Shown here in pieces: positions 4,169-55,998 of a stretch of DNA of 64,000 nucleotides. This DNA is from Candidatus Oleincola secundus. Lineage in GTDB: Bacteria; Atribacterota; Phoenicimicrobiia; Phoenicimicrobiales; Stramentimicrobiaceae. The DNA is taken from contig JAGYLS010000001.1 in NCBI GenBank assembly GCA_018400815.1, forward strand, positions 5,978 through 69,977, given 5' to 3'. The position numbers were made by a program, and so were the translations under genes. The notes below the pieces were generated by a model. The model had not been told where the DNA came from, did no database searches, and was given only the letters and a program-made list of their open reading frames with translations. Within the stretch, counting starts at the first letter, position 1. Every line of letters starts with the position of its first letter.

Positions 4169-6691
4169 TTAATTATTTAAAAATTTCCCGTAAATGAATT
4201 GTTGAACATCTTTTAACATATCATATTTTAAAACTTCTATCCCTTGTTTATCTTTGGAATAAGGATTTATATTGGTAACAATATATTCTTTATCATTAGA
4301 GTTATTTGGATTAGGTACTACTGATATTCTATAATTTAAAGGTTGTCCTGATCTACTAGTCATAGACAATATTTTACTATTTCCTCCTCTGTGCAAATAT
4401 GATAATTCATCTGTTATTTCTTTATATGTTTGATTACTATAAAGCCTATCAAAATTTCTAGTATATTCTGAAGCACTAATTGCTTCATTACTATTAGCTT
4501 CTATAAAGTATCTTTTGTTTGATATAAGGTCTCCATCTTTATTTCCTAATTTAAAAGAAAATGCTCTTTCTCCATTTAGCCATGTATAACCATCAAATAT
4601 TATTGTATTTTTTCCTTCTTCGATTTGAGAAAATATGTTTCTTATTTCATCTGTAATTGGTTTATTATTTACATCTACGGGTTGTGTTAATAAGGGAATC
4701 GAAGCATCAGCTTTATTTTCTTTTATATTTCTATAAATATTTTGCATCCTAGTAGTTATATTATCAGTGGCAGCTGTTATTATTTTAGGATCATCATATT
4801 TATAAATATCAATATTATTACTTTCTAATGTAGAAAGTTCTGTTTCTTCTGCTTTAATATTTATATTTTTTATAACTTGTAAGTATGATTTTATTTCATT
4901 TAACACAGAAGCTTTATTTTTATCTTGAGGTACTTTATTAGAAGCAGACATTAAAGTTCCAATATTTTCATAACTAGGCGTAGTAGTGCCAGGATGTCTA
5001 TCAAAAACAGATACTGCTCCTATATGTTTTATCACATCACTATTAAATATTCCTAAACTGTATAATGTGTCTAATCCTTTTTGTATAGATTCAGTATTTT
5101 GACTACTTAAATCATCTATTGCTTCTATAGCTAAATCTAAAGAATGTCCAGATTCTTGTACACTCTCTAAATCATCATTATATGATTCAAAATAAGAATC
5201 TATATTACTAAATACAACTTCTCTAGGAAGTGATCGGTTAGGATCTAAAGAATAAAATTTATCACTAGAACCAATGGGAGCATTTAAATCATTAAATATA
5301 TCAGGATTAAGATTTAATTCTTCAATTGCTTGTTTTTTAGTTTGATGATATGCTTTCATAGTATAATACAAAGGAACTATATGTCCCATTGCTTCTATTT
5401 GAATATCTTCTTTGGAACTCATTAAGTCACTGCTTAACTTTTTAAATGATTCATCTAAATCGTCATATATAGAAATATTTAAAAAATCATTAATAGCATT
5501 GATGGCTTCTTCATTTTCAGGATCATATATTGGATTACCATCTTCGTCTCTTTGGATAGTTCCATCTTTTCTTTTTGCTAAAGACAATCCTAATAAAGCA
5601 GAAGTTCTATCTTTTTCATTGACTAAAGAACCATAATTATTAGGTACTATGGGCAATCCTTCTTTTGTTTCTAATCTTTCTTTAACATCTAAAGGAGAAC
5701 TGATTAGATCATTTCTTAAATTAGGAGGATCTGGTACTTCAGTACCCATATTATAAAATTCAAGTAATTTATCTAATTTTGTTTGAGTTTCAATATGTTT
5801 TGTATGTTTATATTCTAATCCAGATTGAATTCCTCTTAAATTAGCTTTAAGTATATCTCTTCCTGTTACATTTATATTTTCTCCATTTAAAAAAGCTAAT
5901 TCTGTTTCATATAACCCCATTGTATTTAAATAATCACCAAATTCATCTGGTCTATCTTCAGAACTAAATCCAAATATCATATTCATTAATCTATTTTCTA
6001 AATCAGAATATGTTATTTCAACTGTACCATCTGAAACTTCTAAATCAGAAAAAAACTTATTAGTTAGTATAGAAGGATCAAGAGTTAAACTTTCTAAAGG
6101 AACATCATTATGTTCATTAAAATATAACTTATTATATATATTTTCAATCTGATTAGGTTTAACAAAATCTTTTATATAGGATAAAACAGTAGATTTAATA
6201 TCTTTTTGTTTTGGTAACCTAGATAAAGTAGAAGCTAGTTCATTACTATTAATAATCTCTTCTTTTGCTAATTCACTCCGTAAAACTTGAAATCCATACT
6301 GTTTAGTTAAATCATTATAATCACCAGATAATAAAGCATTATCAAAACCTTTGAATGCTTCACTATTATGAGTCCATTTCTTTATCTGTTCTCCTTCTTC
6401 ACCCATAACTAAATTTCTTGTCAAATTATGTATGAAGTTATCAGCATCAGCTATACTATTTTGATCTAAAAAGGCATCTATCTGTCCATTTATATCATTC
6501 TTTATATTATCAGCACTAGCTTGATATGCTTCATCCAAATCTAATTCAGCAAAATACTCACCTATTTTATCTATACCTGCTCTATTTTTATAAACTCTTT
6601 CTTGTACTACATTAAGGCTATTAGCTAAAGCATTATTAGATGAACCTGGATATTCAGGTCTTAATTGTGAAAACGATTGTTGATAAGGCAT
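4169..6691 (-). CDS. Hypothetical large virion protein, 840 aa.
   Basis: Complete ORF tightly packed between two other giant genes on the same strand. No recognisable motif. Confidence 0.6.
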   Translation of the reverse strand: MPYQQSFSQLRPEYPGSSNNALANSLNVVQERVYKNRAGIDKIGEYFAELDLDEAYQASADNIKNDINGQIDAFLDQNSIADADNFIHNLTRNLVMGEEGEQIKKWTHNSEAFKGFDNALLSGDYNDLTKQYGFQVLRSELAKEEIINSNELASTLSRLPKQKDIKSTVLSYIKDFVKPNQIENIYNKLYFNEHNDVPLESLTLDPSILTNKFFSDLEVSDGTVEITYSDLENRLMNMIFGFSSEDRPDEFGDYLNTMGLYETELAFLNGENINVTGRDILKANLRGIQSGLEYKHTKHIETQTKLDKLLEFYNMGTEVPDPPNLRNDLISSPLDVKERLETKEGLPIVPNNYGSLVNEKDRTSALLGLSLAKRKDGTIQRDEDGNPIYDPENEEAINAINDFLNISIYDDLDESFKKLSSDLMSSKEDIQIEAMGHIVPLYYTMKAYHQTKKQAIEELNLNPDIFNDLNAPIGSSDKFYSLDPNRSLPREVVFSNIDSYFESYNDDLESVQESGHSLDLAIEAIDDLSSQNTESIQKGLDTLYSLGIFNSDVIKHIGAVSVFDRHPGTTTPSYENIGTLMSASNKVPQDKNKASVLNEIKSYLQVIKNINIKAEETELSTLESNNIDIYKYDDPKIITAATDNITTRMQNIYRNIKENKADASIPLLTQPVDVNNKPITDEIRNIFSQIEEGKNTIIFDGYTWLNGERAFSFKLGNKDGDLISNKRYFIEANSNEAISASEYTRNFDRLYSNQTYKEITDELSYLHRGGNSKILSMTSRSGQPLNYRISVVPNPNNSNDKEYIVTNINPYSKDKQGIEVLKYDMLKDVQQFIYGKFLNN

Positions 6692-6707
6692 TTGAATATA
6701 GTATTAA

Positions 6708-9068
6708 TTATTTATATAATCTAGGTAAAGCATTAGTTTGCCAATTTGAATTATAAAGTCTAGTTTTATTAGATTTAAATATCCTATTTTTATCTTTTTT
6801 GTTTCCATAAACATAATCTACAACTTCTTTAGGATAAGAATTAGCTGTGATATTAGCTATTTCCAAATCTAAATCTCTTCTTCTTTGATTATTAATAGAA
6901 CTCATTACATCATCACCAAAGTTAGCCATATTTGCACTAATATTAGCCATCATAGAATCACGTTTAGCAGCTAATTGATTATATTTAAATCTATTAACTT
7001 CATTGATTCTATTAGTATTTTCAGAATTAATTGCTACTGCCCTATTATTATATTCATTATCCATTTGAATATTCCTATCTATAATATCCGTCATAGTTTG
7101 TTGTTTAGCATTTAATCCAGCAGATACTAATTTTTGTTTAGCTGCTCTTAATACTTGTGAGTTTGAAGTATTTAATTCTTCATTACTAATAGCTGATTGT
7201 ATTTCTCTTGATATATTTCCTAATCTACCATAAGGATTTAATCTTCTTCTTGATGGCATAGATACTAATTGAGCAGCAGGAACATCAGGTTTATTAGCAA
7301 AACCATCATATAAAGATAAAGCTAAATTACCAATATTATCAACAGCAGATAAAGCTATGTCATTTTTAATATTAGATGTAGCATTACTATTCTTAGATGT
7401 AGCATTACTATTCTTAGTTTTTGTATTTATATCATTAGATATAGTATTATTAAATGTAGAATCCACATCTTGATTTTTATTTTTTCTTAAATCTTTATTG
7501 AATTGTCTTTTAAATTGTCTAAGTTGTTTATTAGCGTCTCTAGTAGCTAATCTGTCAAGACTTTTATCTGCCTTTTCAACTGTCTCATTTAAATCATAAT
7601 TAAAACCCCATTCATTATAAAAAAACGGATCGTTCATTAATCTCTTAGTATCTTCCTTCAAAGATTTATTTATAGTTCTTTTTTCTCTATTCTGTTTAAG
7701 TCTTTCACCTTTCAACAAATTAGGATGTTTAGACAAGTAATCATTCTTTGCATATTCCATAGTATGATCCATTTGTTTTTTTGGAATATCTTCAGAACCT
7801 ATTGGATTAGAAGGTTGTAAATATTCATATCTTTTTTGACCACCTTTAACTTTTCTATCATCTTGTCCAATTATACCGTCAGCACTAACATTTGAGTTAT
7901 TTGTTACATTCTGTTTCCCTTCAGATAAAGGTATATATAGCTTATCATTAAATCTATTTTTAGATTCATAATATTCTCCATTTATATACATACCATTATA
8001 CAAATCATCTGGTAATATAGGATAACTAGGTCTAGCACTTACATGATCAGGCCATTTAGATTTATTAAAAGTAATAGTTTTCCAATCACCAGAAGGATTA
8101 TTTATAGGGCCACCAGCTTGCATTTCATTAGTTTTCATCCCTGCATATCCCTGTTTATCATTAACAGAATTATACATTTCTTGTTCAGCAGGTATTAATT
8201 TAGCTTTAGACATAAAACCATCAGATAACCTCCTTAACCTATTACCTTCAATCTTATCTGCTGTTAGTGTAGCTTGTTCTTTGTATTTATCAGATTGAAG
8301 TTTAAGTTTCATATATCTATCAGAAAATGAATCACCAAGTCTAGGATTACGTTTGGATAAAGCATAATTACCATCAATTACAACCTCTCCTGGTTCTAGC
8401 CTAGATTCCTGCCCTGAGGCTCCCTTCAAAATTAATTCATCATTGGTCTCGTGGAATCCTTCAGTTGTTCCTTTATCATTAACAGATACAGAATCACCTC
8501 CACCTATATTCATAAGTCCACCATTAGCTAATCGACCTCCATTACTATAATCATCTAATTTAGATTCTCTAAAGTCTTTATATTTTTGATCAGCAGCATC
8601 TTTTTTACTTTTATATTTTCTAAGTTCTCTAGCTACAAGATCTTTATATGAAACACCATGTGCTTCAGCATTTTGTAATGCAAGTCCATAATAAGGTTTA
8701 CTAAGCCATCTATAAAGTCTATTCTTATCTTTGTGTCTATCTCCAGAATACCAATCTACATTTGTCTTAGCAAATCTGTTAAGTTTTTTTAATTGCCTAT
8801 TTTGATATTGAACATCCAAAGGTATCATTTTACCATCTATATCCCCACCAGCTTGAAAGTTAAAACTTTCAAATTCATTTCCACCATATTCATATCCAGA
8901 AAATCTATTTTGATCTTCAATTAATCTATTTGATCTGATTTGTTGAGATTGTTGAAGCATTTGCTTTCTTCTTAACTCTGCTTCTTTCTTCTTATTAATT
9001 TCATTCATCAGGATATTTGTTCCAACTCCTACCCCTTGTGCGACTAAAGAACCTAATAAAATTGACAT
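6708..9068 (-). CDS. Hypothetical large virion protein, 786 aa. It has an N-terminal hydrophobic segment and contains an in-frame 21-bp tandem duplication.
   Basis: Complete ORF. The repeat KNSNATS x2 is encoded at 7374-7415. Confidence 0.6.
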   Translation of the reverse strand: MSILLGSLVAQGVGVGTNILMNEINKKKEAELRRKQMLQQSQQIRSNRLIEDQNRFSGYEYGGNEFESFNFQAGGDIDGKMIPLDVQYQNRQLKKLNRFAKTNVDWYSGDRHKDKNRLYRWLSKPYYGLALQNAEAHGVSYKDLVARELRKYKSKKDAADQKYKDFRESKLDDYSNGGRLANGGLMNIGGGDSVSVNDKGTTEGFHETNDELILKGASGQESRLEPGEVVIDGNYALSKRNPRLGDSFSDRYMKLKLQSDKYKEQATLTADKIEGNRLRRLSDGFMSKAKLIPAEQEMYNSVNDKQGYAGMKTNEMQAGGPINNPSGDWKTITFNKSKWPDHVSARPSYPILPDDLYNGMYINGEYYESKNRFNDKLYIPLSEGKQNVTNNSNVSADGIIGQDDRKVKGGQKRYEYLQPSNPIGSEDIPKKQMDHTMEYAKNDYLSKHPNLLKGERLKQNREKRTINKSLKEDTKRLMNDPFFYNEWGFNYDLNETVEKADKSLDRLATRDANKQLRQFKRQFNKDLRKNKNQDVDSTFNNTISNDINTKTKNSNATSKNSNATSNIKNDIALSAVDNIGNLALSLYDGFANKPDVPAAQLVSMPSRRRLNPYGRLGNISREIQSAISNEELNTSNSQVLRAAKQKLVSAGLNAKQQTMTDIIDRNIQMDNEYNNRAVAINSENTNRINEVNRFKYNQLAAKRDSMMANISANMANFGDDVMSSINNQRRRDLDLEIANITANSYPKEVVDYVYGNKKDKNRIFKSNKTRLYNSNWQTNALPRLYK

Positions 9069-41041: not shown

Positions 41042-41525
41042 CGAATACTTTATTAGCTTCTTTAGTAGTAAGTTTAATTTCTGAATCTAAATCTAATAAT
41101 TGTTTAGCTGCTTCTGAAGTAGAATCATAATAACCTAATATTCCATAAGCGGGAATAATAACATATTCTTCTAACTTATATCTTTTAATTCTACTAATTA
41201 TTATCTTTCTTTGGTCAGGTGTTAGCTTTTCAAATAAACTAGAATAATATTTAAATGATTTAGTATTATTAGGTAAGTTAACACCAAAAGGAGCTGAATT
41301 AGTATAATCATTAGTTAGTTTAACTACATCACCTATTTGAAAACCATGTGTAGTTGGCCCATATCCTTCTACAGTTAATACAGTTTTATCATTATAATCT
41401 TTAGGTATTTTACCTTGACTAAAAGCCATAGCTGATACATTATAACTAATCTTCAATAATACATTATCTCCAATTAGTTTAATAGGTTGTCTTGTTTGTG
41501 GTGGTCTTGATTGTGTAAAGTCCAT
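41034..41525 (-). CDS. First gene of the minus-strand arm, 163 aa. It has a weak GroES-like co-chaperonin pattern.
   Basis: IKLIGDNVLLK ... GKIPKDYNDKTVLTVEGYGP ... FQIGDVVKL resembles GroES (P.GDRVLVK ... G.VVAVGPG ... VKVGDKV). The similarity is low. Confidence 0.3.
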   Translation of the reverse strand: MDFTQSRPPQTRQPIKLIGDNVLLKISYNVSAMAFSQGKIPKDYNDKTVLTVEGYGPTTHGFQIGDVVKLTNDYTNSAPFGVNLPNNTKSFKYYSSLFEKLTPDQRKIIISRIKRYKLEEYVIIPAYGILGYYDSTSEAAKQLLDLDSEIKLTTKEANKVFDV

Positions 41526-42791
41526 AAATTTAATGTTTAATTAGTAATGTATATTAATATGTAAAACAAATATTAGCTGAAAAATATTTTCTTTTAACTG
41601 GGCTAGTTCTAATTAGAACATTTTTATATAATTGCAAGTAATAATTTTTTATTATTATATACATTATAAATAATTTGTTTTAATTTTTGCAATCTTCCTT
41701 AAATTAATTTTTATAATTTAAAATAATTTTTTATTATCGTATTTTATAATTTCAATTAGTTATTTTTTAATTATTTTTCAAATAATTACAAACAACTATT
41801 TCAATTACAAAATATAAAACTTTTTAAATATATCTTAAATCTTAAATACTTGGCAAAGTTAGTAAAAATAAATGACAATGGCAACTACATTTAACATTTT
41901 TTAACATTTTTTAATTTATAACTACTTGATTATCAATACTTTACAAATAGATATATTTTTATCAATATTAAAAACTCTACTATTATCTATTGTATATTCT
42001 ACATTTACAATCATTAAATCTATTTTTGTTATTATTAATATTATTATCAATATCTTTATTAAATTTATTATATAATCAAATAATTACACAACATCTTGTA
42101 AGCCTGCCCGGAGGTTCTTCGGAAAATAATACATATAATTGGCACGACTTTTCCAATATCTACTATAATCTACTATTTAACCTAATGTTTAAACTAATGT
42201 ATTAAGTCTATTAGCAACTATAGTATTTAATAAATCAACTAAATTATTAGTTCAGAGACAATAAAAATACACCATAATAAATAGATATTAAATAAATAAA
42301 CTGTGATTAATAATATAGATGCTATAATAATACTAATAATATAGATTTTAATAATAGTAGAATAATACTAAATAATATTATGATATTTTAGAAATAACAT
42401 TAGGTTATATGATAGAAATTTAAATAATATATAATAATGAAGATTGATTTATTCTGTGGTTGATTTTAATAATTGATTAAATTGTAGATTGAGATAGGTA
42501 AAATTTAAAATTATAAAATGTAATTTTAAGCATGAGTCTCTCTTATCCTATACCCCCACTACAATTTTGGTTTTGAAGTACCCCGTCTCTTTTTGTCAGA
42601 GGTATTATTACTAATGTTAAAAAGGGACCCTTTACACTTGTCTCTCCTCATATTCACGCAATGGTTGATAATAGAAATCAGGCAGCATTCTTACCTAATG
42701 CTCCTCGCACACTTAGCAATAAAGTCTGCCTGATTATTTTTAATGATTGATGAAATGATCCTATACATACGACAATAGTGGTCTTGGCTTT
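41526..42791. promoter_or_regulatory. A 1.27-kb AT-rich divergent intergenic region. Presumed to hold early and late promoters and possibly an origin.
   Basis: No ORF. Very AT-rich (over 80%) until 42.5 kb. A 10-bp tandem repeat ttaacatttt x2.5 lies at 41891-41915, and iteron-like aataatacta(a)ataata copies lie at 42330-42400. Confidence 0.5.
42676..42745 (+). promoter_or_regulatory. Hairpin plus U-run upstream of the moron gene. It could be a terminator, an attenuator or a small RNA.
   Basis: aatcaggcag...ctgcctgatt forms a 10-bp stem with an inner gcatt/aatgc stem. It is followed by atttttaat. Confidence 0.35.
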
Positions 42792-43541
42792 ATGCCTATT
42801 TTTAATGTAATTAATATGTTTAATTTAAAATCTTATCTTATGAAAAGAGATGAATTTAGTGCTAAGATGATTGAACTTAATGTTGACGCAGCAGATGTTG
42901 ACAGATTAGTAGCAATTCCCGGTATCAATGGCAAAACTTATGCTCAATATGCAAAGAGAATTGCTGAATCTGGTGATCCGATCAATGAAGTAACTGCAAT
43001 CATTGCCGAAAGCATCCCGGTAGATGATAATGTATTCTCCATTGACAGACCAGAAAGAGTACTGGCTACTGGTAAAATTGTATCCTGCAAAGTACAAAAA
43101 GCGTACAAAGGATCAACAGCCAGTGTAGTTAATGAAGATGGCAGTGTAACATTACCTACAACAGATTGGCAACGTACTCATTACAGATTAGTTTTGTCTG
43201 TAGACAATGATGTTATCGTTGTTATAGCCGGACACAGGAAAATGTATCAACAAACAGAAGAGATGTTGAGTGATTCGGAAATGTCCATTGATCGTAAAAT
43301 CATTAATGCGGTAAATGGTAAAAATGCTACCCTTGAATTTGATGTGTTTAAACCTGGTAAAATATATCAGATTGAAGGTAGTGATACTGTTAAAAGACCT
43401 GATGTCCTCGAAAGACATTTAGTAGACTTATCCATTGGTGAATCCGAAGATCAACGAAGGATCGAGTTCATTCAAAAACTCATGGAAATCTCAGGAGGAC
43501 AGTTAACCCCAGAGATAGTAGAGTTGAGCAAGTCTATCTAA
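42792..43541 (+). CDS. Hypothetical protein encoded by a GC-elevated (about 40%) moron. The likely start is ATG at 42840.
   Basis: ORF with codon usage unlike the rest of the phage. It is flanked by its own structured leader and a terminator. No family recognised. Confidence 0.55.
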   Translation: MPIFNVINMFNLKSYLMKRDEFSAKMIELNVDAADVDRLVAIPGINGKTYAQYAKRIAESGDPINEVTAIIAESIPVDDNVFSIDRPERVLATGKIVSCKVQKAYKGSTASVVNEDGSVTLPTTDWQRTHYRLVLSVDNDVIVVIAGHRKMYQQTEEMLSDSEMSIDRKIINAVNGKNATLEFDVFKPGKIYQIEGSDTVKRPDVLERHLVDLSIGESEDQRRIEFIQKLMEISGGQLTPEIVELSKSI

Positions 43542-43568
43542 GAAACGAGTGTAACCTCCTTTAGCAAG

Positions 43569-43598
43569 TCTCCCAGATCATCGGGAGATTTGCTTTTT
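43569..43598 (+). terminator. Rho-independent terminator after the moron gene.
   Basis: tctccc-agatcatc-gggaga hairpin followed by tttgcttttt. Confidence 0.5.
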
Positions 43599-44008
43599 AT
43601 AACTAATACGACAGTTGAATTAAAAGTTAGAATAAAATTAAGTGAAGTTATGATTATGAAGATAGATATGAAGATAGATATGAGGTGTAGTCTGAACACT
43701 CTCCTAAGATTATCTCTACTATTCTAAACAATCATCCATTTGAAAATTAACAGTTCTTAATCTCACTTTAAATAAAACTAATCTTACCTCAATTAATATT
43801 AATACTCTAGTTAATAATCTTTAAACTACATTACAGCATCACATTAAAGGTATTAATTACAATATTAATAAACTCTTTAGACCTGTTAATAATCCTAAAA
43901 TTATTTGTTTTTTAAAATAAAATTATTATCTTTACAAGTCAAATTCAACAATACAGAAATAATAGTAATAAATAATAGTAATAAACAGTATTTTATTAAT
44001 ATTATAAT

Positions 44009-44203
44009 ATGCAATACAATCTACTGAAACAAGTTATGAAAACTACTAAAGAGAAACTGCAAGAGTTGTTTAATCAAAAAGTAATTGAACACTCTAAAGA
44101 TAAAGAGGTTGACTTAAATGCTTTCTTCAATGATCCTAAAATACTTAAACGTATTAAAGATCAAATTGAAGTTGTTAAATTAATTCAAACTTCTAATAAT
44201 TAA
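44009..44203 (+). CDS. Small hypothetical early protein, 64 aa.
   Basis: ORF in a low-coding-density region. Confidence 0.3.
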   Translation: MQYNLLKQVMKTTKEKLQELFNQKVIEHSKDKEVDLNAFFNDPKILKRIKDQIEVVKLIQTSNN

Positions 44204-44833
44204 GGTGATTTGGTATGTCGACCTTGAATATTTATTCTGCGGATTGAATATGTCTAAAGAGAACATACTAATCTACAGGATAGGGATGAAAGCCTGAGTA
44301 ATAGATTATAAAATCATATTCCAGTAATATTAATACACATGCTTGGCGTGTCAATATTAATAGCTACGTTGGTAATGTTACAACCATTTCTTTTTAGTTG
44401 AGTAATTAACTAAATCTTATCACAACATTAATTGTGCGATAAAATAGTGTTTCTAAAGTCAAACATTATGCCTTTGTTGTGGTAAGATTTTATTCTTTTT
44501 AGTTGAGTGATTAAGGTGTACAAATCATGCGTTGTAGTAATACAAGTTCACTAACTAAAAACTTTAATAAGTATGGAAAATTTAACAATTGAAATTGTAG
44601 CTATTGTATCTTGTGTAATAACTTTTTTTGCAGGATATACAATAGGTAAAGGAGTTTATGAGAAAACATATAAAAATAAAAAACTCCATTAAACCCCATC
44701 TAAAGATTCAATTGATAATGTAAAATTCATCAATGAATTAAATCCGATTGTAGTAGATATTTACAATCTATTTATAAGTGAAAATGGAACTAAACACTTC
44801 ATTGAATTAAGTCATAATATCTTTATAGATAGT

Positions 44834-45034
44834 ATGAATATTTTAATTTGGGCTGCTAATGACAGATTTCATAGACATTTTACTTCAATACCAACACACA
44901 TGCTAAAAACAGCAAATATGGCAATAGATGAAATTAATAAATCACTATCTTTAGCTGATAAAACAGTACTAGATAGAATTGTTAATGCTGTTAAAGTAAA
45001 TAATAAAGAGTTTTTATCAAGATTGTTCGTTTAA
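44834..45034 (+). CDS. Small hypothetical protein, 66 aa.
   Basis: ORF. Confidence 0.3.
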   Translation: MNILIWAANDRFHRHFTSIPTHMLKTANMAIDEINKSLSLADKTVLDRIVNAVKVNNKEFLSRLFV

Positions 45035-45047
45035 TAACTAAAACCTT

Positions 45048-45401
45048 ATGGTGTATAGGCAACCGTACAAAGTCATGCAAAACTACAACCAACAACAGCA
45101 AGCTGTAATCCTTAAAGGGATAGCACAACAAATCCTTTCAATGAATGTTCCATCTTTCAAGGTAGTTAAGAAACTATTTGAAGAATTTGGAATTGATTTT
45201 GAAGGTGATTTACTATATTCTCAAATGTATGCTGCTTTAAAAGTAGCAGTATCATTGAGTGATGATAGTAAAGAAGTAATAAAACATGACTTTAATCTTA
45301 AAGATAAATCAGATATAGTCCATAGAATTGCTCATTTTGCTTTAAATATGGATGAACCTGGTGAAATAAAATTGAGATTGAAAGTTATGTGTGAAAAATG
45401 A
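45048..45401 (+). CDS. Hypothetical protein, 117 aa.
   Basis: ORF. Confidence 0.45.
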   Translation: MVYRQPYKVMQNYNQQQQAVILKGIAQQILSMNVPSFKVVKKLFEEFGIDFEGDLLYSQMYAALKVAVSLSDDSKEVIKHDFNLKDKSDIVHRIAHFALNMDEPGEIKLRLKVMCEK

Positions 45402-45420
45402 TACAAAAGAGTGCTAATAA

Positions 45421-45606
45421 GTTTGGAGTGTGTATGATGTAATCGAAAGCATAGCTTGTAAGAATGTTTGGGTTTGAATCCCAGTGCACACCATTCTATT
45501 TCCAAATAAGTTAGAGTTGTAATATGTACCATTATAAGTATCATATTACATTGGGGTGATACATTACAACTTCACCCAACATAGATAGGGTGACACTCTT
45601 TTTTTT
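45421..45606 (+). ncRNA. Candidate small structured RNA containing a tRNA-like T-arm and acceptor 3' fragment. It ends at an intrinsic terminator.
   Basis: gtgtgta(45428-34) pairs with tgcacac(45485-91). T-arm ttggg-TTTGAAT-cccag at 45468-45484. Long imperfect hairpin gttgtaatatgta/tacattacaac. Terminator caccc..gggtg + T8 at 45574-45606. Confidence 0.3.
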
Positions 45607-45917
45607 AATGATATAGTAACAAGTAATAGACCTATACACGTAGAAACTGCAACCATAAGAACGCAAGCATTTGAAGATGCGTACTCACGATATAACTATT
45701 ACTTGTTACTTTCTTATAATGATTGATGCTAACTTACGGTCTAAAGGGTTACAATCTGGTATGTAAATAGGTTGATTTAAAATACACTAAGAGTTGGGGT
45801 TATACCTATACAAGCAACATTAAGTTGGCGATATGTATCTCTTTAAGTAAAATAAATTTGTAAAAATATTCCTGAGTCAGATCATCAATCATTTTTTATT
45901 AACTAAAATATTTACAA

Positions 45918-46625
45918 ATGAAAACAAAAAAAGTAAAACCAGTACTGATTAAAAGTGAAAAATTCACTAATATAGTTCAAATATTAAAAGATACTATTTC
46001 ATTTACTACTACACCAAATATACCTGGAGGTAAATACTTACAATTAATCTTAATCAGTTTAGATCCTGATGAAAAGATTGAAGATGGAGATATATTACTT
46101 GATTCAGATTTAAAAACAAGTTTTGAACTATTTTCACCTTATGAAGAAGGAGATATTGCAGTAGATAAATTCTATAAAGTAATAGCAAACCAACACCAAA
46201 TACCTCCAGAATATATTAAACAATTTATTGGAGAATATAATAAAGGTGAAGTTAAAAATGTTGAAATTGAGATGGAGGAATATGATTATGTTGAAGAATG
46301 GTCAGATAACCACGGTGCGTATGAAACATTTAAATTAAAACCTAGAATAACCAATGGTTTTGTTACTATTATTAATAATCATACAGAAGAAAAAAATATT
46401 ATTTATGGTGATAAAGCATATTCTTTTGATGAATTTCGTAAATTAATGACAAAACCAAATCCTATCTATCTTATTGATCCGACAGATATTAAAAATCCAA
46501 AACCAGTTTATACAGAAGAAGAAGTTAAAGATTTAATTCTTAAAGCTTTTGATACACAAGAAAAGTATCAAATAGTTGATAAAGAATTAATACTGGATTG
46601 GTTCGATCAAAACAAAAAGAAATAA
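45918..46625 (+). CDS. Hypothetical protein, 235 aa.
   Basis: ORF. Confidence 0.5.
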   Translation: MKTKKVKPVLIKSEKFTNIVQILKDTISFTTTPNIPGGKYLQLILISLDPDEKIEDGDILLDSDLKTSFELFSPYEEGDIAVDKFYKVIANQHQIPPEYIKQFIGEYNKGEVKNVEIEMEEYDYVEEWSDNHGAYETFKLKPRITNGFVTIINNHTEEKNIIYGDKAYSFDEFRKLMTKPNPIYLIDPTDIKNPKPVYTEEEVKDLILKAFDTQEKYQIVDKELILDWFDQNKKK

Positions 46626-52375: not shown

Positions 52376-53068
52376 ATGGATAAGAAAATAACTTGGAAAG
52401 GATATGAATGGTTACTTCAAGAAGCATGGGGAAATATTCATCCTGAATTTACTTACAAGTGGTATGATCCATCTTGTGTGATAGTAGATAATGATAGTTT
52501 AAAATTATTAACTAAGTATAATCCTAAGAAATTTGAAATTAATGGAATTAACATTATATCTGAGACAGGAATAGGATTAATAAGTTGTCAATATCCTTTT
52601 CATTTCGGAATTTATGACATTGAGGCTAAATTACCAGAAGGTTCAAATCTTTGGCCTGCAATATGGCTTTGGGATAAGAATAAGGAAATAGATATTATGG
52701 AAGCCTATTCCAATGATAAAGGATCATATTTTAGATGTGGTTGGGATTTTTGGAAATTATGGAAGATTCAAAACAATTTTCATTATAAAAACAATAATAT
52801 TAATACACACATAGGGGCTAGAAATATGTTTGTGGGATTTAATAATCCAACTAGTGGGTTTATTAAATATAGAATGGAATGGACATCAGAGTTTATTAAA
52901 ATTAGCATTAATGGCAAAGTAAGACGAATATTTAAAGGAGATACAATGAAATATTTTCAAAGATCAACTCAGTTTGTTATTAACAATGGAGTTAAAGATA
53001 CACATAAAGTAGGTTCTCCTGTTTCTATATTTGAAATTAAAGATTTTAAATATACTAAGTATGAATGA
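52376..53068 (+). CDS. Glycoside hydrolase family 16-like protein (minimal beta-glucanase / laminarinase-type catalytic domain), 230 aa, with no signal peptide.
   Basis: Catalytic motif E-I-D-I-M-E (GH16 ExDxxE) preceded by WPAIWLW (GH16 'WPAFWML'). Confidence 0.5.
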   Translation: MDKKITWKGYEWLLQEAWGNIHPEFTYKWYDPSCVIVDNDSLKLLTKYNPKKFEINGINIISETGIGLISCQYPFHFGIYDIEAKLPEGSNLWPAIWLWDKNKEIDIMEAYSNDKGSYFRCGWDFWKLWKIQNNFHYKNNNINTHIGARNMFVGFNNPTSGFIKYRMEWTSEFIKISINGKVRRIFKGDTMKYFQRSTQFVINNGVKDTHKVGSPVSIFEIKDFKYTKYE

Positions 53069-53390: not shown

Positions 53391-54683
53391 ATGGATTTAA
53401 TAAATAAATTAGATAAAGAACAAAATAAAGCAAAGATAGGATTAAGTAAATCTCAGAAAGAAGGATTAGACTATTTAGTTAAATGGTTTAATGATCCTAA
53501 TGACTTAGTATGTACTTTATATGGAGCAGCAGGTACAGGTAAAACTTATTTATTAAAAAGGTTTTTAGATAATTATGTGAAATATGGAATATCTGTAACT
53601 GCTCCTACTCATAAGGCAGTTAGTGTCATTGAAGCTTCCACTGGTCGTAAAGGTAAAACTTTTCAATCTTTACATGGACTAAGACCTAATTATAATCTTG
53701 AACAATTCAATATTGATAATTTTCAATTTGACACATTAGGGAAACCTTTGATTCAAAGTTATAGATTAGTTGTGGTTGATGAATGTTCTCAAATCTCTTA
53801 TGACTTAGATAGATTAAATAGAACTAGGGCTAAACAATTTATAGTTAAAATATTGTATGTTGGAGATATTTTACAATTACCTCCAATCACTACAAGAAAA
53901 AACCAAAGATTAAGTCCAGTTTTTAATAATCCTACTAGGTTTGAATTAATAGAGATAATTCGTCAAAAAGGAGATAATCCTTTATTAGAAGTATTAAGTC
54001 TATTAAGAGATGATGTTAAAAATGAATCATCTAAGTTTCTAACTTTACTTAAAAAGAAATCATATTCTTTAAATGAAAAAGATGAAGGTTATATTTCTTT
54101 AAATCTTAAAGATTTTAAAATTAGTTTATATAGAAGATTTAAAGATCAAAAATATAAAACTAATTCTGATTATGTTAAATATACTAGTTGGAGAAATAAG
54201 AATATTTCAAGTTGGAATAAATATCTCAGAACAGTATTGTTTAATAACCCCGCAGATGCCATAATTAAAGATGATTTGCTATTAGGATATAATACTATAA
54301 TTGATCCAGATAATTTTATGGAAAGTATTATAACTAATAGCATAAACTACACAATTACAGGTATAACTAAAAGACGATCAGATAGAGGATTTGACATTTA
54401 TGTGATAGATATAAAAAATAATAAAACCATTAAGACTATATTTGTAGTTGACCATGAATCAACCACATTCCGAACATTTTATTCTATATTATCTAATCTG
54501 CATAGAAAAGCTTTATTTGCTCAACCTTATCAAAAATCATCATATTGGACTGAATATTATTCTTTTAAGAATAAATATCTAACTATGATTGATTTTAATA
54601 TAATAGATCAGTCAGATAACATAAAACGAGGTAAAGTTAAAAAAGACTTAGATTATGGTTATGGTATGACTGTACATAAGCTT
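53391..54683 (+). CDS. Dda/RecD-like SF1 DNA helicase, exon 1 (431 codons). It ends inside helicase motif VI, where the intron interrupts.
   Basis: Walker A GAAGTGKT, Walker B VVVDECSQ, GDILQLPP motif. The ORF terminates at ...YGMTVHKL* in the middle of the canonical TVHKxQGS motif. Confidence 0.8.
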
Positions 54684-55821
54684 TAGAAATTGGGGCTTGT
54701 AAAACACTTCTAATTGACGGGAACATCCTTAGAGTTTATCATACTAAATTTATTATAGAAATATAAGTAAATGGCACATCTAATCAATGTGGTATAGTAA
54801 AAAATGATAAAATTGGACAATCCGCAGCTAAGACTCTAAGTGTAAAATAATACATATGAGTAAAGTTCAACGACTATCCCAAATGGGAGTAGGGTTATTA
54901 TTCAAATAATAGCTCGAAACGGAGTGATTATTATATATTGAATGTTCATAAGTTGTTAACAACTTTACATAAATTTGTTATGTAGTGTTATGAATTGTAG
55001 TAATTTTACAAAATAATTAATTAAAATATAAAAATTATGAAAGTTTATAATTCAACAGACAAAAGTAAAAGTAGTAAGAAGCATATTATTTATGCTTTGC
55101 TTAATCCTGTATCAGGTGAAATATTTTATATAGGGTGTACTACAAAATCTTTACAAATAAGATTAGAAAATCATTATCGTAGTTTGGCAGAAGCAATGAA
55201 TACAGATAGAAGAAAAATGTCAGAACGACATAGGTATTTAAAAAATATTTACCCTATTAGAGCTACAATAATTAAATTAGATGAAACTAATACAAATCCA
55301 TACGAGTTAGAAAAGGAATATATTGAAAAATATAAACAATTAAATCCTAATTTAACAAATGTAGCAATTGGAGGAAAAGGTGGTGATACTTTTACTAATC
55401 TTACTAATAAAGAAAAAGAAGAAAGACAACGACTTACGAAACTTGCTTTAACAGGAAGAAAAAAACCAGAGGGTTTTGCTGAAAACTTATCAATAACTAG
55501 AACAGGTTCTGGTAATCCTAGAGCAGGAGCCACTAAATATGGAAAAGTGGTTAGATTCAATGAAAAAAGTGATATTATTACGATTTATAATGCTGGTTAT
55601 GAACTTGCAGAAGAATTTGGTAAGTATTTTCATGGTAATTTAATTAGAAGTTTAAAGAACTTAACAACTTTAGAAAAATTAAATTATTATCATAGAACTA
55701 CAAATACTTATTGGAATTTTGAACATAATTTAAAATACAATCCAGTTAATCGTATTACACATCCTTTTACTAATAATAAGATATAGTCTGACTTTATATG
55801 AAAGTATAAAGATAAAAACCG
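54684..55821 (+). mobile_element. Group I self-splicing intron, about 1138 nt, carrying a homing-endonuclease ORF between the R and S elements (P8 region).
   Basis: P-like aattgacgggaacatcc (54712-28), Q aatccgcagc (54819-28), R gttcaacgactatcc (54865-79) and S aagatatagtctgac (55778-92). The exon ends in U (ctt), and the IGS gggctt (54692-97) can pair with exon aagctt. The intron ends with G55821. Confidence 0.7.
55037..55786 (+). CDS. Intron-encoded GIY-YIG homing endonuclease (I-TevI-like), with a C-terminal NUMOD-like DNA-binding region.
   Basis: HIIYALLNPVSGEIFYIGCTTKSLQIRLENH matches the GIY-(x10)-YIG ... R ... NH motif. There is a conserved Glu (LEKEYIEKY) and Asn (NPNLTNVAIGGKG). Confidence 0.8.
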   Translation: MKVYNSTDKSKSSKKHIIYALLNPVSGEIFYIGCTTKSLQIRLENHYRSLAEAMNTDRRKMSERHRYLKNIYPIRATIIKLDETNTNPYELEKEYIEKYKQLNPNLTNVAIGGKGGDTFTNLTNKEKEERQRLTKLALTGRKKPEGFAENLSITRTGSGNPRAGATKYGKVVRFNEKSDIITIYNAGYELAEEFGKYFHGNLIRSLKNLTTLEKLNYYHRTTNTYWNFEHNLKYNPVNRITHPFTNNKI

Positions 55822-55998
55822 CAAGGTTCTACAGTTGAATATATTTATGTAAACTTAATAGATATTTGTTATTCTGAAGGGGATAAAAGTAAACCAATAA
55901 CAAATAGTCCAAGAAATCCCCATGCTATTGAGTTTAGAAATAGGCTTATTTATACAGCTATAAGTAGAGCTAGTAAAAAAGCAATATTATTAATTTAA
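55822..55998 (+). CDS. Dda/RecD-like helicase exon 2 (58 codons plus stop). It completes motif VI and the C-terminal LYVAxTRA-type helix.
   Basis: The in-frame continuation QGSTVEYIYVNL...RLIYTAISRASKKAILLI* joins to exon 1 as ...TVHKL|QGST..., restoring HKxQGS. Confidence 0.7.
   Translation, partial: QGSTVEYIYVNLIDICYSEGDKSKPITNSPRNPHAIEFRNRLIYTAISRASKKAILLI

Follow-up and report, generated by a model that had tools for sequence, protein, structure and literature searches.

A probable mobile group I intron with a GIY-YIG endonuclease gene splits motif VI of a Dda-like helicase gene in a crAss-like phage

A 64,000-nt stretch of crAss-like phage DNA, analysed as a whole and hereafter called the window, carries a gene for a Dda-like superfamily 1 (SF1) helicase whose reading frame is broken within motif VI. 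The interruption (54684-55821) is very probably a mobile group I intron of subgroup IA, which holds the gene of a GIY-YIG homing endonuclease. We base this reading on the anatomy of the gene, on the homology and covariation of the ribozyme, on a conserved endonuclease family, and on a patchy distribution that includes intron-free alleles in related phages. Coordinates are positions in the window, and all DNA-level readings are on the + strand.

The helicase open reading frame (ORF) at 53391-54686 encodes 431 residues, ends in ...DYGYGMTVHKL and is followed by TAG. Its continuation begins at 55822 with CAA GGT TCT ACA (QGST), reads QGSTVEYIYVNL...RLIYTAISRASKKAILLI and stops at TAA (55996-55998), in frame with the first part and 1138 nt downstream, as the initial annotation of this DNA had proposed. 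Excision of 54684-55821 yields a 1470-nt reading frame of 489 codons plus stop, and the split separates the Leu codon of motif VI from its Gln codon (HKL/QGST), which makes it a phase 0 insertion. The 490 residues first given for the spliced product had to be corrected to 489, as 490 is the number of codons including the stop. Pfam assigned AAA_30, AAA_19 and PIF1 domains to exon 1 and UvrD_C_2 to exon 2, PHROG 325 ("Dda-like helicase") was matched with E = 1.7e-60, and relatives in the PDB included a putative deoxyribonuclease (9kwf), T4 Dda, RecD2 and Pif1; the alignment to 9kwf (kdldygygmtvhklqgstveyiyvnlidi) crosses the proposed junction without a break. In line with the Dda/RecD-like assignment made at the outset, the predicted spliced product is an SF1B Dda/RecD-like helicase with full-length similarity including motifs I-VI.

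We searched the spliced product against 5.8 billion proteins and obtained 729 matches, the best 120 of which were evaluated. One of them is the window's own 431-aa exon 1 product, and two short proteins (404 and 416 aa) stop at HKS, the point where exon 1 of the window ends. The remaining homologues among these 120 are nearly all 457-514 aa long and cover 91-100% of the query. The spliced helicase is thereby collinear with its relatives from end to end, as had been expected, and HK[LS]QGST is unbroken in 117 of the 119 homologues. Residues H429, K430, Q432, G433, S434 and T435 are nearly invariant in the alignment, which together with this continuity places the split exactly between two codons of motif VI.

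The position and identity of the exon 1 stop also bear on stop-codon recoding, in which the TAG would be read as an amino acid and the helicase continued by read-through. Recoding of TAG and TGA has been documented in crAss-like phages (PMC7886860), and the stop in question is a TAG. However, read-through here gives KLGLVKHF and then TAA at 54711-54713, that is, eight codons without helicase sequence, whereas the missing QGST... lies 1138 nt away. Moreover, none of the long ORFs listed in the window, the largest of 1328 aa, is interrupted under the standard code, and no tRNA genes were found in the window. Recoding is refuted by the sequence itself, and we assign it practically no probability. 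An intein was ruled out by stops in the exon frame from the first codon of the insert, and a programmed frameshift by exons that share one frame and are 1138 nt apart.

What the insert does contain is the core of a group I intron. When 54600-55900 was scanned alone, the Rfam model RF00028 (Intron_gpI) gave two matches, on either side of the ORF inside the insert. The 5' match (54705-54926; 40.2 bits, E = 1.7e-8) corresponds to model positions 50-157, from P3 to the P3 3' strand, and the 3' match (55778-55808; 21.5 bits, E = 0.0073) to model positions 221-251, comprising J8/7, the P7 3' strand and P9. A match of these two halves is far beyond chance. An unconstrained minimum free energy (MFE) fold, with the P8 loop replaced by a tetraloop, contained P1, P3, P4, P5 with its extensions, P6, P7.1, P7.2, P8 and P9, and J8/7, P7 and P4, all core elements, agree fully with the consensus of the intron family and of Rfam. 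The intron belongs to subgroup IA because two hairpins, P7.1 and P7.2, lie between P7 and the P3 3' strand (54877-54888, 54892-54915); P2 was not detected in the Rfam alignment of an ORF-less homologue (L002, below). The individual core assignments made initially were upheld: the classical P and Q elements form P4, while R (GTTCAACGACTATCC, from 54865) and S (AAGATATAGTCTGAC, from 55778) have one exact match each in the 64 kb. Likewise, exon 1 ends in U54683, which forms a wobble with G54693 at the 5' splice site, the guide GGGCUU (54693-54698) matches exon AAGCUU, and the intron ends in G (55821). All features are listed in Table 1.

Table 1. Positions of the helicase exons, the intron with its structural elements, and the endonuclease gene in the window, with the evidence for each.
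Feature	Position	Strand	Description and evidence
Helicase exon 1	53391..54683	+	431 codons, motif I to first half of VI, end ...TVHKL; ORF list, Pfam, PHROG
Group I intron	54684..55821	+	1138 nt, in-frame TAG at start, terminal G (omega-G) 55821; Rfam RF00028 split matches, covariation
P1	54678..54698	+	exon AAGCUU 54678-54683 / guide GGGCUU 54693-54698; read directly, MFE fold, covariation
P10 candidate	54690-54692 / 55822-55824	+	UUG / exon 2 CAA, can pair
P3 5' strand	54705..54710	+	CACUUC, pairs with GGAGUG 54921-54926; Rfam alignment, compensatory changes in 3/6 pairs
P4-P5 domain	54715..54826	+	Rfam alignment, MFE fold, covariation
P4	54715-54721 / 54821-54826	+	classical P and Q elements
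P5	54726-54728 / 54815-54817	+	
Extended P5a-c hairpins	54735-54811	+	
P6	54827-54829 / 54864-54866	+	Rfam alignment, covariation
P6a	54833-54837 / 54857-54861	+	Rfam alignment, covariation
R element	54865..54876	+	GUUCAACGACUA; invariant in all six introns
P7	54872-54876 / 55784-55788	+	GACUA / UAGUC; Rfam alignment, six-intron alignment
P7.1	54877-54880 / 54885-54888	+	fold of segment alone; same in mini-intron folds
P7.2	54892-54901 / 54906-54915	+	fold of segment alone; same in mini-intron folds
P8	54927..54933 / 55771-55777	+	AUUAUUA / UAAUAAU; 837-nt loop holds endonuclease gene; compensatory changes in 6/7 pairs
GIY-YIG homing endonuclease gene	55037..55786	+	249 aa, between R and S in P8 loop; Pfam PF01541
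S element	55778..55788	+	J8/7 AAGAUA + P7 3' strand UAGUC; Rfam alignment
P9 hairpin	55792..55811	+	CUUUAUAU-GAAA-GUAUAAAG; Rfam alignment, covariation
Helicase exon 2	55822..55998	+	58 codons + TAA, QGSTVE...ISRASKKAILLI; Pfam UvrD_C_2, collinear with homologues

Including the window, complete introns were found at the identical codon boundary in six cases (1138, 291, 1009, 1243, 1234 and 1193 nt), together with one 3' fragment. The five other complete introns reside in crAss-like helicases that are 36-48% identical to that of the window. All same-site introns lie at HK[LS]/QGST, all seven 3' ends are a G before CAAGG, and the guide, GRGCUU throughout, pairs with exon AAGCUU or AAGUCU. P1 with its U-G wobble is thus kept in the six introns despite CUU/UCU and G/A changes, and both A[AU]GAUAUAGUC (J8/7-P7) and GUUCAACGACUA are invariant. 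The contigs that encode the two short proteins ending at HKS are organised like the window. In L002, the insert is only 291 nt long (5213-5503), lacks an ORF and matches the full Rfam model (positions 1-253) with 81.7 bits and E = 7.7e-20, the gathering score being 50. The insert of L003 and L004 measures 1009 nt and contains an ORF of 224 aa. One deviation was observed in L126 (735-905), where the intron starts with TAT instead of TAG or TAA and the exon 1 frame runs about 57 codons into the ribozyme.

Covariation was analysed in an alignment of the six introns after deletion of their ORFs, using a 91-pair structure based on the RNAalifold consensus. One helix of this consensus that used a P7 strand was removed, its segment forming P7 and P7.1, and P7 was added as a pseudoknot. 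Standard pairs were present in 97.8% of cells, and 38 of the 91 pairs showed changes on both sides. When the 3' partners were slid by 1-3 columns as a control, 34-43% of cells were paired and 2-8 pairs had double changes. For the percentage of paired cells, for doubly changed pairs and cells, and for the covariation score, not one of 500 shuffles reached the observed value, and a single shuffle (1/500) did so for further pair types. Double changes were seen in P3 (3/6 pairs), the P5 extensions (5/8 and 6/7) and P8 (6/7), while P4 and P7 are invariant across the six introns and so uninformative for covariation. The most telling helix is P8: in each of the introns, the stretch that follows directly on the P3 3' strand pairs with the one that directly precedes J8/7, forming stems of 7-18 bp with unrelated sequences that enclose 4 nt in L002 and 716-912 nt of ORF in the others. 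Rfam, unconstrained folding and covariation together support the prediction that the intervening RNA is a group I ribozyme.

The same set of introns speaks to gene fission without splicing, by which a free-standing endonuclease cassette would have divided the gene, with the 431-aa and 58-aa polypeptides being translated separately and reassembling, as in some phage genes split by endonuclease insertions. Gene callers do list the pieces as separate genes in public assemblies, and the L002 intron by chance ends in ATG, which creates a callable 60-aa ORF. In the window, however, exon 2 lacks a start codon: a TAA at 55813-55815 closes its frame, leaving only AAA CCG before the CAA, and the window's ORF list contains no ORF of at least 30 aa in this frame. 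The insert holds a complete ribozyme with strong covariation, and an endonuclease cassette cannot explain the ORF-less 291-nt version at the same split. We therefore regard fission as very improbable and retain the group I intron as the explanation of the split.

The GIY-YIG endonuclease gene, which the initial annotation had located between R and S, was recovered there and could be placed more precisely in the P8 loop, from where it runs into J8/7 and P7. Its product matches Pfam GIY-YIG (PF01541) over residues 15-101 with 33.0 bits, above the cut-off of 22.6. The last codons of the ORF, ACU AAU AAU AAG AUA UAG, provide the P8 3' strand and J8/7 and lead into the P7 3' strand, which starts with the stop (TAG, 55784-55786). 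ORFs that reach into intron core sequences are a known arrangement (PMC3984707). A search with the window endonuclease returned only four other proteins, all of them in this same helicase intron, and the homologues are encoded directly downstream of a truncated helicase or, on the short contig L129, which is truncated on its upstream side, immediately before helicase exon 2. The six family members are 42-70% identical, with Y19, F30-Y31-x-G33, R42, H46-Y47, E92 and N103/N105/N108 invariant. These residues match the Tyr, Tyr, Arg, His, Glu, Asn active-site pattern of GIY-YIG enzymes and presumably correspond to those of I-TevI.

More distant relatives were numerous: a profile search of 1.84 billion representatives gave 7215 at E <= 1e-3, only 23 of which were at E <= 1e-30. 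Sampled distant relatives are GIY-YIG proteins with NUMOD3, some also with NUMOD1 (I-TevI-type architecture), and the NUMOD3-bearing profile matches align to query residues ~120-160. The window protein itself has no Pfam NUMOD3 match, its C-terminal half matched no Pfam domain, and sequence and profile searches of the PDB with it gave no significant match.

Upstream of the endonuclease start, a TAnnTTTG box, the Bacteroidetes -7 promoter consensus, is found at a distance of 24-32 nt in five of six introns (L003 1786, L125 3024, L126 1062, L127 2709, L129 91), compared to a background of ~0.0009 per nt. At the aligned place, the window has TAATTTTA, with one mismatch to TAnnTTTG, and an exact TAAATTTG occurs 60 nt upstream (54970-54977, 55000-55010). 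This arrangement suggests that the endonuclease gene may have its own promoter inside the P8 loop. The P8 loop of the window also contains a perfect 16-nt palindrome, AAGTTGTTAACAACTT (54950-54965). A conserved palindromic element, ATTCATAAA(C/G)TTTATGAAT, precedes the endonuclease ORF at the equivalent location in L126 and L127 and is degenerate in L125 and L129. The P8-loop palindrome could form a hairpin or bind a protein and so regulate the endonuclease gene.

The inexact box in the window could hint at a decayed expression signal for the endonuclease, as would fit a decayed intron or pseudogene whose ribozyme no longer splices and whose helicase is inactive or dispensable in the phage. 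Yet the two exons are intact, being free of frameshifts and complete in their helicase motifs, and in J8/7, P7 and P4 the window does not depart from the family and Rfam consensus. When the ORF-deleted window intron is folded without constraints, P1, P3-P6, P7.1, P7.2, P8 and P9 are obtained, 97.8% of cells are paired across the six introns, and the endonuclease ORF is full length with every family-invariant residue kept. We thus consider decay very improbable, and a presumably functional mobile intron the better description of the insert.

The distribution of the intron among relatives is patchy. Intron-bearing helicases do not cluster but are scattered among intron-free ones, and the nearest relatives are intron-free at 58% aa identity for the window, 65% for L125, 75-76% for L002 and L003, and 87% for L127. 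The latter is 89% identical at the DNA level over the gene to the intron-free L131. Intron-minus alleles, whose existence in related phages the initial annotation had predicted, were indeed found, and in three of them every base lines up with the predicted ligated exons. While all intron-bearing alleles keep the guide-pairing AAG-CUU or AAG-UCU before the site, intron-free alleles have AAA-UUA, AAG-UCA or AAA-AUG, synonymous or near-synonymous changes that would weaken P1. The L002 and L003 ribozymes are 94% identical and differ by the presence of the ORF, which fits a possible loss of the endonuclease gene in a homing cycle.

Several observations weigh against a functional, mobile intron or limit the support for it. 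Rfam scans of the whole 64-kb window, at gathering as well as E-value thresholds, returned no match, and the window intron stays below the gathering score (50 bits) as a single match, being found in two pieces only. The Intron_gpI support that had been anticipated for it was hence obtained in part, as the partial matches of the region scanned alone. The whole-window scan is empty because the ORF splits the match and speed filters drop it at 64 kb; since the region on its own gives Intron_gpI matches, the empty result reflects filtering and does not speak against the intron. The covariation counts are biased towards the structure used, which was built from the six sequences themselves, although the Rfam model independently gives the same canonical helices. 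Of the endonuclease family, only the window copy reaches the Pfam GIY-YIG threshold, the five relatives being below it on their own. An AlphaFold2 model built from 5 sequences was poor, with a predicted local distance difference test (pLDDT) score of 45.6; its N-terminal order of beta-beta-alpha-alpha-beta-alpha is compatible with a GIY-YIG fold but unreliable at this score, leaving the fold unconfirmed. As to mobility, no co-conversion tract was found beside the junction in pairs of intron-plus and intron-minus alleles. The identities between the main lineages are all deep, with 67-79% nt for the ribozyme, 42-52% aa for the endonuclease and 36-48% aa for the helicase. Given this similar depth of divergence, vertical descent with losses may account for a large part of the history, and long vertical co-inheritance with occasional loss may explain much of the pattern as well as frequent homing.

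Based on these data, we propose the following course of events for the mobile intron. The pre-mRNA would fold into the P1-P9 ribozyme, in which the guide GGGCUU would hold the exon end AAGCUU with the U-G wobble at the cleavage site. Free guanosine would attack after U54683, and the freed exon would in turn attack after the terminal G55821 (omega-G) and be joined to C55822. The predicted ligated junction, ...CAUAAGCUU/CAAGGUUCU, would provide an mRNA for the intact 489-aa helicase. Where a co-infecting relative brings in an intron-free helicase allele, the endonuclease would cut this allele near the conserved site, and repair of the cut allele would copy the intron in (homing). Since the P8 3' strand, J8/7 and the start of P7 are all built from the 3' end of the ORF, a single RNA molecule would be expected either to be occupied by a translating ribosome or to adopt the active ribozyme fold, but not both at once.

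A broader combination of these elements is put forward tentatively, as possible but on balance doubtful. The window intron would belong to an undescribed lineage of intron plus endonuclease that is dedicated to motif VI of the Crassvirales SF1 helicase and has persisted across 36-48% identity. Its endonuclease would be expressed from its own Bacteroidetes-type promoter in the P8 loop, and the mutual exclusion of translation and folding would couple helicase to endonuclease expression.

The window derives from a crAss-like (Crassvirales) gut phage. It encodes crAss-type major head and portal proteins, its gene order of helicase, uracil-DNA glycosylase and DNA polymerase is the same as in Crassvirales references, and the best phage tblastn matches of the helicase are Crassvirales helicases with 29-36% identity, among them cr127_1, a Bacteroides cellulosilyticus crAss-like phage and crAssphage itself, all uninterrupted. 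The G+C content of the window is 27.5%. Just upstream of the helicase, inside the block of replication genes, a 230-aa glycoside hydrolase family 16 protein is encoded at 52376-53068 on the + strand (Pfam PF00722, E = 1.7e-11). Core-motif searches for a second intron in the window gave near-chance matches only, nhmmer and tblastn detected no further ribozyme or endonuclease copy in the window, and Rfam matches in 41500-46500 were at chance level. Another 249-aa ORF at 42792-43541 (+) was considered as an endonuclease and rejected: it shows no resemblance on reading, has no tblastn match and is surrounded by no intron signal, and its equal length is coincidental.

Two further observations concern the related contigs. 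In L002, three tRNA-model matches (1803-1886, 5708-5823 and 6271-6368) flank the intron-bearing helicase; two of them are long (116 and 98 nt) and may be long-arm or interrupted tRNAs. On the 88.6-kb phage contig L125, a second homing-endonuclease-like gene, with HNH_3, NUMOD4 and NUMOD1 domains (6172-6888), lies ~2.2 kb downstream of the helicase intron, past the uracil-DNA glycosylase gene, and may mark another mobile insertion.

Altogether, the window intron is a well-supported but ordinary example of a known selfish element. It is textbook knowledge that conserved phage replication genes harbour mobile group I introns, and introns have already been reported in crAss-like phages, so that the general picture is unchanged. 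The main value lies in the annotation of crAss-like genomes and in a compact natural set for splicing and homing experiments. Public gene calls present the locus as a 431-aa fragment, an unnamed ORF and an uncalled tail. Because gene calls split the helicase and standard Rfam scans miss the intron, crAss-like helicases can be mis-annotated as truncated, and ORF-containing introns are easily missed by routine whole-contig Rfam scans. As a resource, six introns of one and the same site are available, one of them an ORF-less ribozyme of 291 nt and the others with ORFs, as well as intron-free alleles, along with a small divergent GIY-YIG family whose natural target is probably helicase motif VI. 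The intron and endonuclease sets could serve splicing assays and homing studies among uncultured gut phages.

The closest known systems include the group I introns described from crAss-like phages (Yutin et al. 2021, PMC7886860), which carry endonuclease ORFs and are inserted in core genes for replication and structure. These occur in the same phage order as the window, but were detected via protein domains only, and neither the site in the SF1 helicase nor the structure of the ribozyme nor this family of endonucleases was described; a later paper on the Zeta group (PMC12386605) notes endonuclease ORFs only. We found no description of an SF1 helicase intron or of this endonuclease family in the literature searched, which was open-access only, so that this absence is not proof. 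With RF00028, the window copy shares the consensus of the core P3-P9, J8/7 and P7, but it is split by the 837-nt P8 loop into two pieces of 40.2 + 21.5 bits. The nearest annotated ribozyme is that of polA intron 2 of Staphylococcus phage K / A5W (I-KsaIII), with 71% identity over 190 nt from P1 to the R element. It likewise interrupts a phage replication gene, yet it encodes an HNH endonuclease and belongs to a DNA polymerase gene of a Firmicutes phage (Herelleviridae).

A further counterpart is T4 td/I-TevI, a group IA intron with a GIY-YIG homing endonuclease and one of the classic phage introns, whose mode of action the window element presumably shares. The host gene is thymidylate synthase in td and an SF1 helicase here, and the td intron ORF is in P6, whereas the window ORF is in the P8 loop and overlaps J8/7 and P7. 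In addition, no P2 was detected here, and the window endonuclease differs in having no detectable sequence match to solved structures and no Pfam domain in its C-terminal half. In common with td, the window has a group I intron in a phage DNA-metabolism gene, inside a highly conserved coding motif, with an in-frame stop just after the 5' splice site and a GIY-YIG endonuclease on board, the distant relatives of which have the I-TevI-type architecture of GIY-YIG and NUMOD3.

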